Shown here: positions 3,544 to 26,968 of the stretch, one piece after another | Layout of the letters: each line of letters starts with the position of its first letter | Position numbering within the stretch: the first letter of the stretch is position 1 | DNA from: Nitrososphaeria archaeon | GTDB lineage: Archaea > Thermoproteota > Nitrososphaeria > Nitrososphaerales > JAAOZN01 | DNA length: 64,000 nt | Assembly: GCA_029775855.1 (NCBI GenBank) | Contig: JARVJZ010000001.1 | Location: forward strand, 224,001 to 288,000 | Direction of reading: 5' to 3' | Program-made: the position numbers and the translations under genes | Notes under the pieces: generated by a model | What the model was told of the DNA's origin: nothing | Database searches by the model: none | What the model saw: only the letters and a program-made list of their open reading frames with translations

Positions 3544-5626
3544 GATGAGTACAGCACTGCTATGGTCAAGCCAGTATATTGCTGCCGTAATAATAGGGTT
3601 AGCGCTCGCTCTACGTATCTTACAAAAAGAACCTAGGGTGCTGGTGAACTATCTTTTGCTAATTTATTCGCTACTAGTGTCAATTTGGTCTTGCTCTGTC
3701 TTTATACATAGAACTACTCCATATCTTGATCTATCGATGCTTGCATTTAGAATAGGTGCGATCTCACTCTTCTTAGCTCAGGGAACATATTTATCTATGG
3801 CATTTTCCATCCGTTCACTTAAAAAACGATACTTGTTTATGATTTTACCGGCATTGGTAGTCTCAATAATCTATCTTGGCTTCGGCGACTTCACATTTAC
3901 CTACACAAGCTTTGGTTGGTCATATCGCTTGGCTGGTGATTTATTTTCACAGAGTATACGTGGGTTGACTAACGAAGCCTATAACTTTGCTATTCTCTTA
4001 ACACTTTACTCGTTATATAAAGGAGCAGCTAGTCCTGTGTTAAAACGTAAATTAAAGTTCCTATTACTTCCTTACTTGACCTTTCAGTTTATTGGCTTTT
4101 CGGCAACAAACCTTATATTAATAGTGAGTGAGGACGTGCCGCCCTTTGGAGGAATGCTGCATATAGGGACGTTTATAACTATGAGCTATGCGCTAACTCT
4201 CTCACCTAAACCTTTGATAGCCTACGCATCAGCTTCAGATACGTCTGGGAGATATACCCGCTTTCTAAACCAACTACTTGATAAGTTGCCCGGAGAAGCA
4301 TTAGGCCAAAAGTATGTCCTCTTTTCCCAGTTCCTAAAGCAAACTAACATAGATAAATGTGTATCATATATAGGTGACCGACCGTTTTTCAAGGCAAGAA
4401 TCCAATTAGACTTGGTATTAAGTATTGAGAAGACGCTCGACTATTTATGTGAAATCAAATCAATTTCCCTTTTGGATAGCTATCTACCTGTCATAAATGC
4501 TGCCTATACGAGTCTATCTGCTTCGGAAAGGCAGAAGTTAGATGAGGTGATCTTGAAGCATGCGAAGTTTCTGATGGAATGTGATGTATTTTATGGTGTA
4601 GATGGAGGAAGACTCCTGCAGAAGGTTGAGGTAGACAGTAGCTTAAATAGTATCCAAGATACAGAAGCCGCTTTAAGAATATACAAGAGGATACTGCTTG
4701 CAACCTTTACGGAGTTTAACAGCGTTTTAGGTAGCGAGTTCCTCAACCGCCTCCTTCTCTACGATGTTTTGAAGGATATAGAATTGGAGGCTGACGGTTA
4801 CATTTCGATAACAAACTGCTTAGAGAAGCATAAGAATGACCCGCCTGTAAAGATTATAACATTGTTCAACAGTTTCCTCTCTCAAGCTATATCTCAAGTC
4901 GAAGACACAGCGCCAAGGACCGCTAGCGTAATATTAGGCAAGATAAATAGAGTCCTGGAGTTAAACTGGCGCCGCGCGTCAAAATTAGGTATCGTATCCG
5001 CTCTGAGAATTGCCCTCGGTGATTTGGTTTCTGAGCCAATAACCATACCTTTGCTAAATGAACCTATAACCACAGACACCTTTAGAGCTTCGTCAATCAT
5101 ACTAGGCAAATCTATAGAAGAGGTTGCAGGGAAGGTTATCCTCTTAGAGTTCACAACACCAATACCTCTACAGCTCGCTGCAAGAAGGTTAGCAGTAGAA
5201 GCGCTGGCAAAAGGATATGATGTGGTAGTCTTCACTAGAAAGGGTAGTGTGGTCGAAGAATCCCTCACACCATTAGACGTGAAATATATTTACCTCACAC
5301 TAATACCTCACACAGAAAAGGAAGGAGGCAAATCCTATGTCCAGCTCAGAGATCCAACCGAAGTGTTAACCGCACTTAGCGAGCTAAGCCCATCTGAGGC
5401 ATCACTCATACTCTTTGACAACCTCACCGACCTAATCCTAACAACCGGCTTCGACAAAACATACACCCTTCTGCGACACGTGGTTGAACTAGCGGCGGAG
5501 ACGAAAGCGGTCATATTACTCGGACTCAACAAAGACGCACACGAAAAGCAGCAAGTAGCCGCCTTAGAAGCCCTAGTAAACCTAACTATAAACCTAGAAA
5601 AGGCAGCTAAACTGTTAGAGCGTTAA
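3536..5626 (+). CDS. Membrane sensor: N-terminal 7TM (HisKA_7TM-like) region, helical middle, C-terminal DUF835-like inactive KaiC-fold domain
   Basis: About 7 hydrophobic segments in aa 1-225; C-terminal ILFDNLTDLIL..GFDKTY..L...VILLGLNKDAH...LE pattern; no kinase motifs. Confidence 0.7.
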   Translation: MYKMSTALLWSSQYIAAVIIGLALALRILQKEPRVLVNYLLLIYSLLVSIWSCSVFIHRTTPYLDLSMLAFRIGAISLFLAQGTYLSMAFSIRSLKKRYLFMILPALVVSIIYLGFGDFTFTYTSFGWSYRLAGDLFSQSIRGLTNEAYNFAILLTLYSLYKGAASPVLKRKLKFLLLPYLTFQFIGFSATNLILIVSEDVPPFGGMLHIGTFITMSYALTLSPKPLIAYASASDTSGRYTRFLNQLLDKLPGEALGQKYVLFSQFLKQTNIDKCVSYIGDRPFFKARIQLDLVLSIEKTLDYLCEIKSISLLDSYLPVINAAYTSLSASERQKLDEVILKHAKFLMECDVFYGVDGGRLLQKVEVDSSLNSIQDTEAALRIYKRILLATFTEFNSVLGSEFLNRLLLYDVLKDIELEADGYISITNCLEKHKNDPPVKIITLFNSFLSQAISQVEDTAPRTASVILGKINRVLELNWRRASKLGIVSALRIALGDLVSEPITIPLLNEPITTDTFRASSIILGKSIEEVAGKVILLEFTTPIPLQLAARRLAVEALAKGYDVVVFTRKGSVVEESLTPLDVKYIYLTLIPHTEKEGGKSYVQLRDPTEVLTALSELSPSEASLILFDNLTDLILTTGFDKTYTLLRHVVELAAETKAVILLGLNKDAHEKQQVAALEALVNLTINLEKAAKLLER

Positions 5627-5632
5627 CCAAAA

Positions 5633-5731
5633 TGGTGGACCGGGGGGGATTCGAACCCCCGACCTCCCGCGTGCGAGGCGGGCGTCTGCACCAGCCACAG
5701 CAGACTGCTCATACCACTGAACTACCGGCCC
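5633..5731 (-). tRNA. tRNA-Ala(CGC), CCA encoded, 23-nt intron at 23/24 (5686-5708)
   Basis: GGGCCGG/CCGGTCC acceptor stem, T-arm GGGGG-TTCGAAT-CCCCC, anticodon arm CCCGC-CT-CGC-AC-GCGGG; intron flanked by a BHB (GTAT/GTGC helix, bulges GAG and AGA). Confidence 0.95.
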
Positions 5732-5747
5732 ACTTAAACAAGGCCTC

Positions 5748-5834
5748 GGGACTAGAGCGCAACCCAACATATATTCTTCATCCCAGAGGCGTGGTCAGAT
5801 CGCCCGTCGTAACGTTGGGCTGCGCATCTCCCCC
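5748..5834 (-). ncRNA. BHB-flanked box C/D guide RNA (single K-turn), predicted target 16S C1402; excised part 5752-5825
   Basis: GGG-GGAG-ATG-13-bp stem / stem-CTCT-AGT-CCC is a canonical BHB; inside are guide CGACGGGCG, box D CTGA, CCA/TGG stem and box C ATGAAGA. Confidence 0.75.
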
Positions 5835-5965
5835 TTTTACCCCATTACTATAATCAGTTCAAGCATATTACAGTTACCAAACCCATTCTTCCATCCACCA
5901 CACAAGCACTACTCTATTATAACCATCATAAAAGTTTAATATATTCGCTTAACATACCTACATAA

Positions 5966-6021: not shown

Positions 6022-6333
6022 ATGGGAAAGAGGAAGGTAATCAGCGAAGAAGAGTTAAAAGAAATGGTCTACCCAGGACCAGGAGAAGTACTGGGTAGAG
6101 TAGTTAAAAGACTTGGAAGCGACCTTATGGTAGTAAAATGCGCTGACGGTAAAACCAGAATTGGTAGAATAAGAGGGAAATTGAAGCGCAGAATCTGGGT
6201 AAGAGATAACGACGTAGTTCTCGTCGCACCATGGGACTTTAAAAGTGATGAAAGAGGAGATATAATCTGGCGCTACACCATAGCACAAATAGATATTCTA
6301 AAGTCACAAGGATACCTACCACTCGACCTCTGA
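6022..6333 (+). CDS. eif1a: Translation initiation factor aIF-1A
   Basis: CADGKTRIGRIRGKLKRRIWVRDNDVVLVAPWDF...GDIIWRY. Confidence 0.97.
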   Translation: MGKRKVISEEELKEMVYPGPGEVLGRVVKRLGSDLMVVKCADGKTRIGRIRGKLKRRIWVRDNDVVLVAPWDFKSDERGDIIWRYTIAQIDILKSQGYLPLDL

Positions 6334-6344
6334 GGCTGAACCCT

Positions 6345-7130
6345 ATGTGGAGCGGAGGCGACGACCTCCCAGAAGAGGTCAAAGAAAGTCTACTTGAGTA
6401 TGAAAAAAAGAGCAGATACCTAATAAAACGCTCAGAAGACCAGCAGGTAATCGAAGACGTCTTTGACAAAGCAACAAAGATGGCCTTATACAAACTCATA
6501 AACAAAGGTGCACTTCAAACACTCATCGGCGTAGTCAAAACAGGGAAAGAATCAAGGGTCTACTGGGGGAAAAAAGCAGACAACACAGACGTAGCAGTAA
6601 AGATTTACCTAACAGTAGCAGCTGACTTTAGAAGAAGACTACCATACATCCAAGGCGACCCAAGATTCACAAATGTCGGTAAAGGAATAAGAAACATAGT
6701 TGAAGTCTGGGCTAAAAAAGAATACCGCAACCTAAGCGAAGCCTACAAAGCGGGCGTCAAAGTGCCGCAACCATTCAACCTAAACAAAAACATACTCGTT
6801 ATGCAGTTCATAGGTGAAGAAGGCAAACCAGCACCCACCCTAAAAGAAGTAGATAAACTGACACAAAAAGACTACCGCAACGTAATAGAGCAGATAACCT
6901 TACTCTACCAGAAGGCTGAGCTCGTGCACGCAGACTTATCCGAATACAACATCTTTAAATGGAGAGATGAAGTAATCCTATTTGACTTCGGCTCAGCAGT
7001 ATCCAGAGAACATCCAAATGCAGACGATTTCCTACAAAGAGATATAGAAAACCTAAACCGCTTCTTCAGCAAAAAAGGAGTTAGAACGCAGCAAACACAA
7101 ACCTTACTCAAAAAAGTGAAAGGCGAATGA
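6345..7130 (+). CDS. rio1: RIO1 serine kinase/ATPase
   Basis: TGKESRVY, AVKIY, WAKKEYRNL, LVHADLSEYN, FDFG. Confidence 0.95.
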   Translation: MWSGGDDLPEEVKESLLEYEKKSRYLIKRSEDQQVIEDVFDKATKMALYKLINKGALQTLIGVVKTGKESRVYWGKKADNTDVAVKIYLTVAADFRRRLPYIQGDPRFTNVGKGIRNIVEVWAKKEYRNLSEAYKAGVKVPQPFNLNKNILVMQFIGEEGKPAPTLKEVDKLTQKDYRNVIEQITLLYQKAELVHADLSEYNIFKWRDEVILFDFGSAVSREHPNADDFLQRDIENLNRFFSKKGVRTQQTQTLLKKVKGE

Positions 7131-7687
7131 CCTTTGAACAAACACTCAAGATCCCCATAGATCGTATAGGCGCACTGCTAGGAAAGCAAGGCTCAACCAA
7201 AGCAGAAATAGAAAAGCTGTGCAACGTATCCATCAACGTAGACAGCAACACAGGTGAAGTAACTGTAAAGATCAAAGGAGCAGTTGAAGAAGCAGAACCA
7301 TTTAAAGCCCTAGCCATAATCAACGCAATAAGCAGAGGTTTCTCACCTCAAAGAGCATTCAAACTTACAAAAGACAACACAACACTAGAAACCATAGATC
7401 TAAGAGAATACGCAGGCAGATCTAAAGACGCATTAACTAGAATAAAGGGCAGAATAATCGGGCAAAACGGCAAAGCAAGGAGAGTGATAGAAGAACTCAC
7501 GAGAACAGAAGTATCAGTATATGGACACACAGTATCCATAATAGGTGAACCAGAAGGCGTTAAGCTTGCCGCGGAGGCTGTAAAGACACTCGCATCAGGA
7601 AGCCAACACAGCACAGTATATCGAATGCTTCAAAGAGCAAGGCAAAAAGCAAAACTTGAGCGCCTAAAACTATGGGAGGAAGAGTGA
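7127..7687 (+). CDS. KH-domain pre-rRNA processing protein (Dim2/Pno1)
   Basis: Two KH GxxG motifs (LLGKQG, IIGQNG), RGFSP; conserved position after rio1. Confidence 0.92.
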   Translation: MTFEQTLKIPIDRIGALLGKQGSTKAEIEKLCNVSINVDSNTGEVTVKIKGAVEEAEPFKALAIINAISRGFSPQRAFKLTKDNTTLETIDLREYAGRSKDALTRIKGRIIGQNGKARRVIEELTRTEVSVYGHTVSIIGEPEGVKLAAEAVKTLASGSQHSTVYRMLQRARQKAKLERLKLWEEE

Positions 7688-9310
7688 ATGTCAAAAAGGC
7701 AGACAATCTTCAAAGAAATCTCGCCAAGCGAATTCTTCTACCGAAACCGAGACCTAGCTGGATTCAGCAACCCAAGCAGAGCCCTCTACGCAGCTACCAG
7801 AGAATTGGTCGAAAACGCATTGGATGCTTGTGAAACAGCATGTATACTACCAGACATATTCGTAAGAATAACATCAGCAACCATAGATGGAACATTAGCT
7901 GACCCCAAACCGTATACGCTTAAAGTTCAAGACAACGGTCCTGGCGTAGAGCCAAAATATGTGCCAGACGCATTCGCCCGCATCTTCTACGGAAGCAAGT
8001 TCCAACTTAAGCAGTCAAGAGGCATGTTTGGCATGGGTGCAACGATGGCAATTCTCTATGGGCAAGTCACAACAAACAAACCCGTGTTAGTAACAACCTC
8101 AGTCGATGGTGAGAAAGCATATACATTTGAGATGATGGTCAATATACACGACAATACACCCCTTGTACTGAACAGAACGGTCAAACCAGCTAACGGTAAG
8201 ACAGGCCTATCTGTACAGCTAACATTAGAAGGCGACTACAGCAGATCAGGGTCAAAGATTCAAGAATACTTTAAGCAGACCGCCCTAGTAACACCATACG
8301 CCAACATACTATTCATAGATCCAAATGGCAGACTCTTCTTCTATAGCCGAGCCACCGATAAGATGCCAAAACCAGCAAAAGAGACACTGCCACATCCACT
8401 AGGCATAGACATAGAAGCGCTAAGAAGACTGCTTAAGGAATCTAAAGAGCCCACACTCAAAAAGTTTCTCTCAAAGAACTTCCACAGAGTTGGAGACAAC
8501 ATCGCAGAAGACTTCTTAAAGTTCGCAGGTTTAGACGCAGAAGCAGACCCAAAAAGGTTATCAAACGACGAGATAACCAGATTCGTAAGCGCATTACACT
8601 CATACAAAAACTTTCTACCCCCGGACGCAAGATGCCTATCACCTTTAGGTGAAGAACTCCTTGCAGCTGGCATAGAGAAGGAACTGCAGCCTGAGTTTTT
8701 AGCAGTTATACAAAGACCTCCTTCAGCCTACTCCGGCTTCCCCTTTATAGTTGAAGTTGGTTTAGCGTACGGTGGAAAGGGTGTTGAGCAAGGGTTAAAA
8801 CTGCTAAGGTTCGCAAACAGGATACCCCTTTTATACGACGAAGCGAACGACATATCTTGGAAGGTAGTTAACGAGGAGATAGATTGGAAGAGATATAACA
8901 TACCTCAAGATGCACCACTTACCATCATAACACACGTCTGCTCAACGAAGGTACCATACAAAACAGTAGGAAAAGAATACCTTGCAGACAGACCAGAACT
9001 CGAAAGGGAGCTTAAAAACGGAGTGAGAGAGGTTCTTCGAAGGCTCGGCACATACCTCTCACGCAAAAACACGCTTGCATTCGCTAAAAAGAAAATGAAT
9101 ATCTACGAAAAATACCTACCGCTTATAGCAAGATTCTCAGCCGACCTAATAGGTGCAACAAAGCTTCCAAACTATAAGAAACTACTTAAGAAAAGCGTAG
9201 AAGAAACCGCTGAAAATTTTGAAGAACCTATAGTAGAAGTGGAGAATAAGCCCATTGAAAATAAGGTGGTGAAACTTGAGCAGAGGAGACTCGAAGACTT
9301 TAGCCAGTAG
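7688..9310 (+). CDS. top6B: DNA topoisomerase VI subunit B
   Basis: GHKL motifs ELVENALDA, DNGPG, SRGMFGMG; RFANRIPLL, STKVPY. Confidence 0.97.
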   Translation: MSKRQTIFKEISPSEFFYRNRDLAGFSNPSRALYAATRELVENALDACETACILPDIFVRITSATIDGTLADPKPYTLKVQDNGPGVEPKYVPDAFARIFYGSKFQLKQSRGMFGMGATMAILYGQVTTNKPVLVTTSVDGEKAYTFEMMVNIHDNTPLVLNRTVKPANGKTGLSVQLTLEGDYSRSGSKIQEYFKQTALVTPYANILFIDPNGRLFFYSRATDKMPKPAKETLPHPLGIDIEALRRLLKESKEPTLKKFLSKNFHRVGDNIAEDFLKFAGLDAEADPKRLSNDEITRFVSALHSYKNFLPPDARCLSPLGEELLAAGIEKELQPEFLAVIQRPPSAYSGFPFIVEVGLAYGGKGVEQGLKLLRFANRIPLLYDEANDISWKVVNEEIDWKRYNIPQDAPLTIITHVCSTKVPYKTVGKEYLADRPELERELKNGVREVLRRLGTYLSRKNTLAFAKKKMNIYEKYLPLIARFSADLIGATKLPNYKKLLKKSVEETAENFEEPIVEVENKPIENKVVKLEQRRLEDFSQ

Positions 9311-26410: not shown

Positions 26411-26968
26411 TTAAGCCCTCCACCAATCAAAAGTGATAAACTCAACACGCTTTTGAACCACATCCGCAACAGCCAAGATGAACTGCTTCCTCACAGTAGT
26501 AGCTAACCTACCTGATAGAATAATTCTGGTAGCAGTGAGATCTTGGGAAGGTTTGACGACTTCAACAAGATAAGGTGCGTGGTCTATTCCGGGACCATGC
26601 TCATAGACTGCAAAATCACAACCAAACTTGATTCCAGGGCTTACAACTAACCCCGCATCTCTAAGATTTCTATACACCAGATACTTCTCTGGGAATTCAA
26701 TGTACTCAGACTCACAGATCTTCTTTAACATCTTTATACCAACCTTACTATGTAAAGGAGATCGCCTTATTGTAATCCTACCGCGCTCCAAAAGATAGTA
26801 TCCCTCTATTAAATCGAGAACCAAAGGTGCGTTGAATTCAGCGTTTTTAGGCTTAGGTATACCTAACGGCTTACCGTAGAAGCCTTCTTTAAAAAGGGAC
26901 CTTGCATCCTCAATGCTCCAGATGATTATTCTGTTTCCGACAAGCTCTGCGGGTATAGCAGCGCTCAA
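26411..26968 (-). CDS. endA: tRNA splicing endonuclease, catalytic subunit
   Basis: GIKFGCDFAVYEHGPGIDHAPY and TVRK (Tyr/His/Lys triad); GFYGKPLGIPKPK crenarchaeal-specific-type loop. Confidence 0.95.
   Translation of the reverse strand: MSAAIPAELVGNRIIIWSIEDARSLFKEGFYGKPLGIPKPKNAEFNAPLVLDLIEGYYLLERGRITIRRSPLHSKVGIKMLKKICESEYIEFPEKYLVYRNLRDAGLVVSPGIKFGCDFAVYEHGPGIDHAPYLVEVVKPSQDLTATRIILSGRLATTVRKQFILAVADVVQKRVEFITFDWWRA

Follow-up and report, generated by a model that had tools for sequence, protein, structure and literature searches.

The window analysed here comprises 64,000 nucleotides (nt) from a Nitrososphaeria archaeon (assembly GCA_029775855.1, contig JARVJZ010000001.1, positions 224,001 to 288,000 of the forward strand). 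On its minus strand, between a tRNA-Ala(CGC) gene and a divergent group of genes that begins with aIF-1A, lies a short element whose ends form a bulge-helix-bulge (BHB) arrangement and whose interior contains the guide and boxes of a C/D-type small RNA (sRNA). Its anatomy, its conservation among relatives and a circular joint found in environmental RNA suggest that it is probably a guide for modification of 16S rRNA that operates with one pair of boxes, C' and D', and that is released in this organism by tRNA splicing. Coordinates given without a contig are positions in the window (Table 1).

Read from 5834 to 5748 on the minus strand, the element is GGG-GGAG-(AUG)-CGCAGCCCAACGU ... AUGUUGGGUUGCG-CUCU-(AGU)-CCC, with two opposed bulges (in parentheses) of 3 nt, a spacer helix of 4 bp and flanks of at least two Watson-Crick pairs, the geometry of a helix-bulge-helix-bulge-helix (hBHBh') motif. 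The inner helix encloses, in order, UACGACGGGCGAU, CUGA, CCA-CGCCUC-UGG, G-AUGAAGA and AUAU. CUGA and AUGAAGA, on either side of the CCA/UGG stem, correspond in sequence and placement to the boxes of an archaeal C/D sRNA, and all of these parts lie where a first, sequence-only reading of the locus had placed them. According to the kink-turn consensus, the two boxes would fold with GAU as a 3-nt bulge, followed by two sheared G-A pairs and then by A-U and G-C pairs. The element contains no terminal box C, no terminal box D and no D guide, and a single kink-turn motif, as proposed by that reading, is all that the window and aligned relatives show. A 106-nt region around it folds at -44.2 kcal/mol (z = -3.33), and none of 200 shuffled sequences was equally stable. 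Loose BHB motifs number 960 genome-wide, four of which are loci with a 13-bp inner helix; BHB geometry by itself is therefore frequent, and the deciding evidence is conservation together with the RNA joint from 5825 to 5752. The element has no match in Rfam 15 at gathering scores, nor any at E values up to 10 across 5600-5900. Nor does it lie inside a mature tRNA body, as a tRNA intron does, since it ends 16 nt 5' of tRNA position 1.

Table 1. Features of the guide RNA locus and of related genes, with positions in the window unless a contig (C1, genome G000) is named.
Feature	Position	Strand	Basis or remark
Complete hBHBh' element	5748..5834	minus	sequence reading and BHB scan
Outer helix GGG/CCC, 3 bp	5834-5832 / 5750-5748	minus	
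Central helix GGAG/CUCU, 4 bp	5831-5828 / 5757-5754	minus	
Bulges AUG and AGU, 3 nt each, on opposite strands	5827-5825 and 5753-5751	minus	
Closing (inner) stem, 5' strand CGCAGCCCAACGU	5812..5824	minus	13 bp with 5770-5758
Guide strand UACGACGGGCGAU	5799..5811	minus	core CGACGGGCG = 5809-5801
Box D' CUGA, non-bulged strand of putative kink-turn	5795..5798	minus	
Mini-hairpin CCA-CGCCUC-UGG, canonical (C) stem of putative kink-turn	5783..5794	minus	
Box C' AUGAAGA, bulged strand of putative kink-turn	5775..5781	minus	RUGAUGA, fifth position free
3' loop strand AUAU (5774-5771), then stem 3' strand AUGUUGGGUUGCG (5770-5758)	5758..5774	minus	
Excised 74-nt RNA, circle joining 5752 to 5825	5752..5825	minus	RNA contig joint
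tRNA-Ala(CGC), G3:U70	5633..5731	minus	Rfam tRNA, 52.8 bits
TATA/BRE-like element GGTAACTGTAATATG	5864..5878	minus	about 33 nt upstream of BHB
aIF-1A, RIO1 kinase, Dim2/Pno1-like double-KH protein, topoisomerase VI subunit B	6022-9310	plus	divergent from sRNA-tRNA unit
EndA paralogue inside the window	about 26462-26695 (= G000:C1:250462-250695)	minus	
Second EndA paralogue	C1:5132-5386		

The guide core CGACGGGCG is complementary to C1400-G1408 of 16S rRNA and makes a perfect 9-bp match with the organism's own 16S. The numbering is that of E. coli, in which we take CGCCCGU to be C1400-U1406 from the universal primer site 1392-1406. The single 16S gene of this genome reads ACACACCGCCCGUCGCUUCACC, in which CGCCCGUCG, the target that had been predicted before this gene was consulted, is the exact complement of guide positions 3-11 upstream of CUGA. 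Within the 1.5-Mb genome the 9-mer CGCCCGTCG occurs only in the 16S gene and, antisense, in the element. G5803, the fifth nucleotide upstream of CUGA, opposes the third base of the 9-mer, which is the equivalent of C1402 (own 16S position 1373), the nucleotide to which the sequence-only reading had been led by the box D+5 rule. The guide thus stands as in archaeal C/D sRNAs, directly 5' of box D', complementary to rRNA and with position 5 on the target nucleotide. The neighbouring tRNA-Ala was rejected as a target, as it offers at most six contiguous pairs, with its anticodon-stem strand.

Table 2 of PMC11542601 lists 2'-O-methylation at the C1402 site in E. coli, yeast, human, three plants, an alga and Pyrococcus abyssi; the same nucleotide is C1402 in E. 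coli, C1639 in yeast, C1703 in human and Cm1369 in P. abyssi. Its chemistry in E. coli is treated in PMC11551388. Predicted targets in helix 44 are sparse, with position 1408 predicted in two species (PMC4644070).

When 40 relatives were searched with BLASTN, the three other genomes of the genus and a 626-nt contig of genome G024 yielded full-length copies, and the guide/box core turned up in several other families as well. A first covariance model was built from five sequences and a second (R2) from 33 hits. The first gave exactly one match per genome in 113 of the 151 genomes of the order, and the second was positive in 118 of 151 genomes of the class Nitrososphaeria, other orders included, with a nearly invariant guide; conservation of the guide and boxes, which had been looked for as a prediction, is present in relatives. 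By family, the second model detected the RNA in 6/9 genomes of f21, 8/10 of f24, 17/17 of f26, 2/2 of f27 and 0/14 of f22. The tallies for the class and for fibrillarin (below) include one unpublished genome, G254, on which no result hinges. In a sample of the phylum, 25 of 150 other genomes were positive, of which 19 belong to the same order, five are true outliers and one is a chance match. The outliers come from f43 (4/4), which is outside the class, and from f49 (1/2), and both families keep C1402 at +5; about 30 further families in this sample held no true member. The chance match, in G346, is to sequence that resembles an open reading frame. The f43 copies (L219-L222) have CAGA as box D' and a far longer 3' loop strand of about 14 nt, with +5 still on C1402.

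An exact scan for the core in the genomes of 185,579 species returned at least 119 stretches. Among the 80 matches listed, 68 have titles naming Nitrososphaeria or Thaumarchaeota and 12 are bacterial; the listed archaea include Nitrosopumilaceae, Nitrososphaeraceae, Nitrosocosmicus, Nitrosotalea, Nitrosotenuis, Nitrosopelagicus and Cenarchaeum. The 12 bacterial matches were set aside as chance, being without a real closing stem.

Support for the structure comes from an alignment of 33 sequences, where all 12 modelled pairs of the closing stem show compensatory changes on both sides, 97.5% of cells are paired (21-44% when the partners are slid) and the covariation score is reached by none of 500 shuffles. 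The guide, CUGA, the CC/GG pairs of the mini-hairpin and GAUGANGA are nearly invariant across the family, and the third pair of the mini-hairpin covaries (CCU/AGG in L005, a relative in the genus). Box D' is CTGA in 105 of 113 sequences defined by a pattern search, the variants being CAGA, CCGA and CTGG, and box C' varies as GAUGA(A/C/G/U)GA. In 31 of the 33 model-aligned sequences there is no insertion or deletion between guide and box; the two others carry one additional base at the box (CTGG-A). The closing stem measures 7-18 bp in 104 of the 108 non-bacterial pattern-defined sequences. Throughout the family, box C is absent behind the 5' strand of the stem and box D ahead of its 3' strand; the 3' loop strand comprises 4-7 nt. 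A core in G011 (family f9; L244, region C1:83250-83263) comprises the guide, CUGA, a CCC/GGG mini-hairpin and GAUGAAGA and has no clear closing stem. The covariance models miss it for this reason, and some of their apparent misses are thus false negatives.

Five genomes that were negative for the hairpin were searched for the bare guide followed by CUGA. Family f22, a sister family, has the same guide in the same +5 register before CUGA in 5 of its 14 genomes; its remaining genomes are incomplete or unmatched. A textbook sRNA in G177 and G168 carries it (CGAUGGGCAGA-CUGA) as its D guide, in the order stem, GAUGAUGA, 12 nt, UCGA, loop, GAUGAGA, guide, CUGA and stem. G152, G156 and G159 have the guide in the D' position of an sRNA with two kink-turns, laid out as stem, GAUGAGU, guide, CUGA, GUCC, AUGAUGA, 12 nt, CCGA and stem. 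That bona fide C/D sRNAs carry the same guide and register is the strongest argument that the hairpin would be a C/D guide directed at this nucleotide too. Dropping box C, the D guide and box D from the D'-guide form leaves the order of parts seen in the hairpin. Circular permutation of the D-guide form would equally give that order, and either history is compatible with the layouts.

Scans of the window's own genome for canonical C/D sRNAs gave no hits under strict settings and, under relaxed settings, three weak hits and one real one. Crude scans point to two further intergenic C/D-like sRNAs, each with two kink-turns: one at C4:172402 (minus strand), with 8-nt matches to 16S and 23S rRNA, and one at C3:133263 (plus strand), with a 10-nt match to 23S rRNA near the peptidyl transferase region. 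Judged by these crude scans, the organism's guide repertoire seems very small. A second RNA with one kink-turn and a long stem was not found in this genome. Other candidates that combine a hairpin, a kink-turn and an rRNA match (19, with 3 in the control) were rejected, nearly all of them lying inside long open frames; C3:193223 was classed as coding because its relatives show third-position substitutions and have lost the box.

Evidence for the RNA itself comes from a public metatranscriptome run, X7, which contains half of the sampled words of the locus. Over 5560-5960 its contigs show a single joint, which runs from 5825 to 5752 and goes back 74 nt; it occurs in one contig at a depth of 4.6, with 49 letters on its shorter side and no positional ambiguity ("both" = 0). 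This contig, record 17, is 104 nt long, contains no mismatch, and runs from 5806 to 5752 and then from 5825 to 5777. Its first 30 letters are identical to its last 30, and its length equals 74 + 30. Because of these identical ends, record 17 is interpreted as a closed 74-nt cycle in an assembly graph with k = 31, the value that we presume was used. In this run, at contig level, the joint corresponds to cuts after the second nucleotide of each bulge followed by ligation. It agrees exactly with the predicted release of 74 nt (5825-5752), and the predicted circular junction, ...GCTCTAG|GCGCAGCC..., is present in the RNA contig and absent from DNA run X2, in which the joint has a depth of zero and 5560-5911 is covered in one linear piece. 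Record 13 of X7 extends from 5560 to 5752. It takes in the intron-containing tRNA, the spacer and over 70 nt on the far side of the tRNA 3' end, and its limit at 5752 is precisely the circle's final base. A precursor, the 3' end of a convergent plus-strand mRNA and coverage noise are all conceivable sources. X7 leaves 5826-5960 uncovered; taken singly, neither this stretch nor the end of record 13 can be interpreted. RNA runs X21 and X22 cover just the tRNA's 3' half, at 90-95% identity; these pieces come from other organisms and are silent on this locus.

The proteins that such a pathway would employ are largely encoded in the same genome. Two EndA paralogues (tRNA_int_endo), in open frames of 187 and 198 amino acids, suggest by their shortness an (alpha-beta)2 heterotetrameric splicing endonuclease, and RtcB is encoded as well (592 bits); the maturation enzymes assumed by the sequence-only reading are thus available. 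Neighbouring genes at G000:C1:289352-290759, 1.3-2.8 kb outside the end of the window, encode fibrillarin and Nop5. They share a contig with the guide RNA and lie about 60 kb away from it. RsmI (TIGR00096) and RsmH (PF01795) have no match in the genome, which is 98% complete, so that a bacterial-type, protein-only route to (m4)Cm1402 is not evident.

Downstream of the element, the tRNA start was confirmed at 5731, which leaves the 16-nt spacer that had been described. The identity of the tRNA as tRNA-Ala follows from the anticodon loop CUCGCAC and the G3:U70 pair as read in the sequence. Its 25-nt insert separates the D arm from the anticodon stem, a site that is not canonical for an intron; ARAGORN wrongly reports the gene as a tRNA of unknown type whose anticodon has 4 bases. 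Upstream, GGTAACTGTAATATG, which resembles a TATA box with a transcription factor B recognition element (BRE), is a likely promoter of a joint sRNA-tRNA-Ala transcript, and the motif GGTAAC(T/C)GTAATAT is equally placed in all five BHB/tRNA-linked sequences compared. The 16-nt spacer is too short for a separate tRNA promoter, and the sRNA is probably co-transcribed with tRNA-Ala.

In the thermophile-lineage families f1, f12, f16 and f24, and probably in f19, the gene that follows directly on the same strand is tRNA-Ala(CGC), a recurrent linkage of which the sequence-only reading was unaware. A BHB surrounds the closing stem in 12 of the 113 distinct sequences: four from the genus (with the G024 contig), five from f12, one from f24 and two weak cases that are probably due to chance; when the 5' flank was shuffled, a BHB arose around the hairpin in 29 of 2247 trials. 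The central helix of the BHB differs in both of its strands among three lineages (GGAG/CUCU, GAAG/CUUC and UCUU/AAGA), and the predicted circles of the BHB members measure 70-76 nt. Genes of ammonia oxidisers have neither BHB nor tRNA; their TATA box is placed about 27 nt ahead of where the stem begins. The description of the element as a BHB-excised guide accordingly holds for this locus and not for the family as a whole: the RNA is class-wide, and most of its members are without a BHB or an adjoining tRNA.

In f19 (L054-L056, L047) a 7-bp outer helix and an asymmetric internal loop with a 3-bp helix adjoin the hairpin, a structure that is not a canonical BHB and may be a relaxed splicing motif; an intron-containing tRNA lies about 60 nt downstream of the hairpin. 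The G024 copy (L003, contig C96) is BHB/tRNA-linked and 89% identical to the window, and G008 (L011), of the same genus as G024, holds a very different copy without a BHB. The 626-nt contig of L003 is therefore probably mis-binned and derived from a relative of the window's genus. The divergent aIF-1A-rio1-dim2 genes upstream were identified as described, and their association with the guide RNA recurs in 2 of 72 loci, both of the genus; a neighbourhood confined to the genus gives the arrangement no functional weight.

These observations are best accommodated if the element is a C/D-type guide, limited to the C'/D' part, for 2'-O-methylation of C1402, and is matured in this organism by the tRNA splicing machinery. 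We consider this likely; its inferred parts are protein binding, methyl transfer, the identity of the ligase and co-transcription with the tRNA. The RNA would be transcribed within the 5' leader of pre-tRNA-Ala(CGC) in this genus, excised at the BHB by the endonuclease of tRNA splicing and ligated, presumably by RtcB, to a 74-nt circle. CUGA and AUGAAGA would form one kink-turn capped by the mini-hairpin, and the guide strand of 12-13 nt before CUGA would pair with 16S rRNA 1400-1408, so that the box D+5 rule would put C1402 opposite the fibrillarin active site, with Nop5 and L7Ae holding the enzyme. The long Watson-Crick stem would replace the terminal box C/D kink-turn and the second guide.

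Several points weigh against this interpretation. Archaeal C/D sRNAs have two box pairs, and neither in the window nor in the 33 members aligned does the closing stem adjoin a second GA/GA motif; the pairing of two kink-turns through a Nop5 dimer, which defines canonical archaeal C/D ribonucleoproteins (RNPs), is missing in every member examined. The guide duplex is just 9 bp long, and 8 bp in 12 of 113 sequences. The guide-to-box register, found in 113/113 sequences of the pattern search, is partly circular as an argument because the pattern fixes the spacing, and five of the 113 are bacterial chance hits. Since fibrillarin is encoded in 150 of 151 class genomes, with or without the RNA, its co-occurrence with the RNA is uninformative. 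The circle derives from one contig at its depth of 4.6, in one run of one study; contigs give no strand, ends or abundance, and the DNA control is one (X2) of six DNA runs that contain the locus. Most members, including all ammonia oxidisers seen, are without a BHB, so that circularity is not a property of the family.

Pairing with 16S rRNA could also serve a purpose other than catalysis. As a chaperone or antisense RNA, the element would bind L7Ae, pair with nascent 16S rRNA at 1400-1408 and either prevent the decoding centre and the top of helix 44 from closing or order their folding. A canonical Nop5-bridged RNP may not form on a single kink-turn, and the target segment is late-folding and functionally central, both of which suit such a role. 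It is nevertheless unlikely, because the fixed spacing between complementarity and CUGA is the constraint of the +5 rule and is not expected of plain antisense pairing, and because the guide keeps this register in the two-kink-turn C/D sRNAs of f22. Moreover, the nucleotide at +5 is known to be ribose-methylated in other domains (PMC11542601). An H/ACA-like pseudouridylation guide is suggested by the overall shape, in which a lower stem is followed by an internal loop, a kink-turn and an apical loop; H/ACA-like motifs are described in PMC4652768. This assignment is scarcely credible, as the stem is not followed by a conserved ACA, in place of an upper stem of about 5-6 bp just two pairs separate the loop from the sheared G-A pairs, the 3' loop strand (4-7 nt) lacks complementarity to 16S rRNA, no uridine occupies the place of the bipartite pocket (16S reads ACACACCGCCCGUCG) and the boxes are CUGA and RUGANGA.

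Two further alternatives concern the circle. It would not be RNA if the joint had entered the RNA library from a co-occurring strain with 74 bp of its DNA duplicated in tandem, or had come from an assembly artefact. The shallow support from one contig and one run, the lack of strand information in contigs and the fact that DNA can be present in RNA libraries speak for this explanation, which is still very improbable given that the joint falls exactly at both predicted BHB cuts with zero ambiguity and that the contig has the length of a closed cycle (74 + 30) without a mismatch. DNA carry-over would also be expected to cover 5826-5960, which X7 does not, and run X2 is linear across 5560-5911 without the joint. 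The circle might instead be the by-product of an "intron" or processing signal in the leader of pre-tRNA-Ala that has no function in trans. There is very little chance of this: the hairpin, guide and boxes are kept in more than 100 genomes, mostly without an adjoining tRNA or BHB and with their own TATA box about 27 nt upstream, and conservation falls on the guide and kink-turn, not on processing sites. The location of the element, 16 nt upstream of an intron-containing tRNA-Ala, and the tRNA-Ala(CGC) directly downstream in several families are what such a processing signal would explain.

A broader account, possible and put forward tentatively, joins these lines of evidence. A natural half-mer C/D RNP would be the dedicated Cm1402 guide across Nitrososphaeria, including all ammonia-oxidising archaea; it would have arisen from a canonical two-box sRNA like those of f22 and, in thermophilic lineages, have been domesticated as a spliceable insert in the pre-tRNA-Ala leader. 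If this were true, the tRNA splicing machinery would double as the biogenesis and circularisation pathway of a ribosome-modification guide, and fibrillarin-Nop5 could act in vivo on RNAs with a single kink-turn, perhaps with two RNAs per Nop5 dimer. The globally abundant Nitrososphaeria would gain a concrete guide RNA, whose target would be the one ribose methylation of the decoding centre that is common to all domains. The family would challenge the two-kink-turn rule for archaeal C/D RNPs and offer a natural minimal substrate for structural and mechanistic work. A guide RNA from a tRNA leader would represent a new class of splicing-endonuclease substrate, tying tRNA maturation to ribosome modification. 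Such RNAs are missed by snoscan-type searches, which need terminal C and D boxes, and are not in Rfam 15; with a covariance model such as R2, most genomes of the class would each gain one annotated gene. In the full-text literature searched, outside which lie most subscription journals and supplements, there was no description of this RNA or of C/D guides in Thaumarchaeota, and three 17-mers from the core were absent as text.

Compared with known systems, the element belongs to a known kind of RNA and is new in architecture and biogenesis, an interpretation that is largely supported, with its catalytic role inferred. It shares with canonical archaeal box C/D sRNAs, including those of f22 (G177, G168, G152, G156, G159), the box sequences, the kink-turn, a guide 5' of CUGA, C1402 at +5 and paired ends. 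It differs from them in having one box pair and one guide, a Watson-Crick stem of 9-16 bp in place of the terminal kink-turn and a 3' strand of only 4-7 nt. The eukaryotic snoRNAs for the C1402 site are snR70 and U43 (SNORD43); guides of this type have a terminal box C/D motif and are linear, unlike the element. They and the Cm1369 site of Pyrococcus abyssi represent RNA-guided ribose methylation of the same rRNA nucleotide (PMC11542601).

Release of a guide by tRNA splicing has precedents. The pre-tRNA-Trp intron of Euryarchaeota contains a C/D box guide. Like that intron, the tRNA-Met intron of Nanoarchaeum equitans holds a C/D guide that is freed at a BHB by the splicing endonuclease, and the excised piece is circular (PMC3491384). 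In contrast to such intron guides, the BHB here is outside the tRNA body, in the 5' leader; 16S rRNA, not the host tRNA, is the predicted target, and there is one kink-turn. The dicistronic tRNA-sRNA transcripts and the permuted sRNA24 of N. equitans resemble the locus in tRNA co-transcription, which is probable here, in a box D upstream of box C and in a circular form, but in those transcripts RNase Z frees an sRNA that follows the tRNA, both box pairs are kept in sRNA24, and no BHB takes part (PMC3491384). Indeed, the termini of C/D sRNAs are usually without a canonical BHB (PMC7994747). BHBs outside tRNA and rRNA that are cut by EndA to yield a circle, as is proposed here, occur in the permuted signal recognition particle (SRP) RNA of Thermoproteus (PMC4731332, PMC7994747) and in the 5' untranslated region of Haloferax HVO_1309 (PMC7714728). 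Unlike the element, neither is a guide RNA: the SRP RNA needs circularisation for its function (PMC4731332), and the other is an mRNA leader (PMC7714728). Other EndA substrates and circular C/D RNAs are covered in PMC7714728 and PMC3326292. The closest architectural parallel is provided by synthetic half-mer box C/D RNAs, whose crystal structures contain one kink-turn and one guide with L7Ae, Nop5 and fibrillarin (PMC3608112). Those half-mers are laboratory constructs, and the element described here would be a natural, conserved one.

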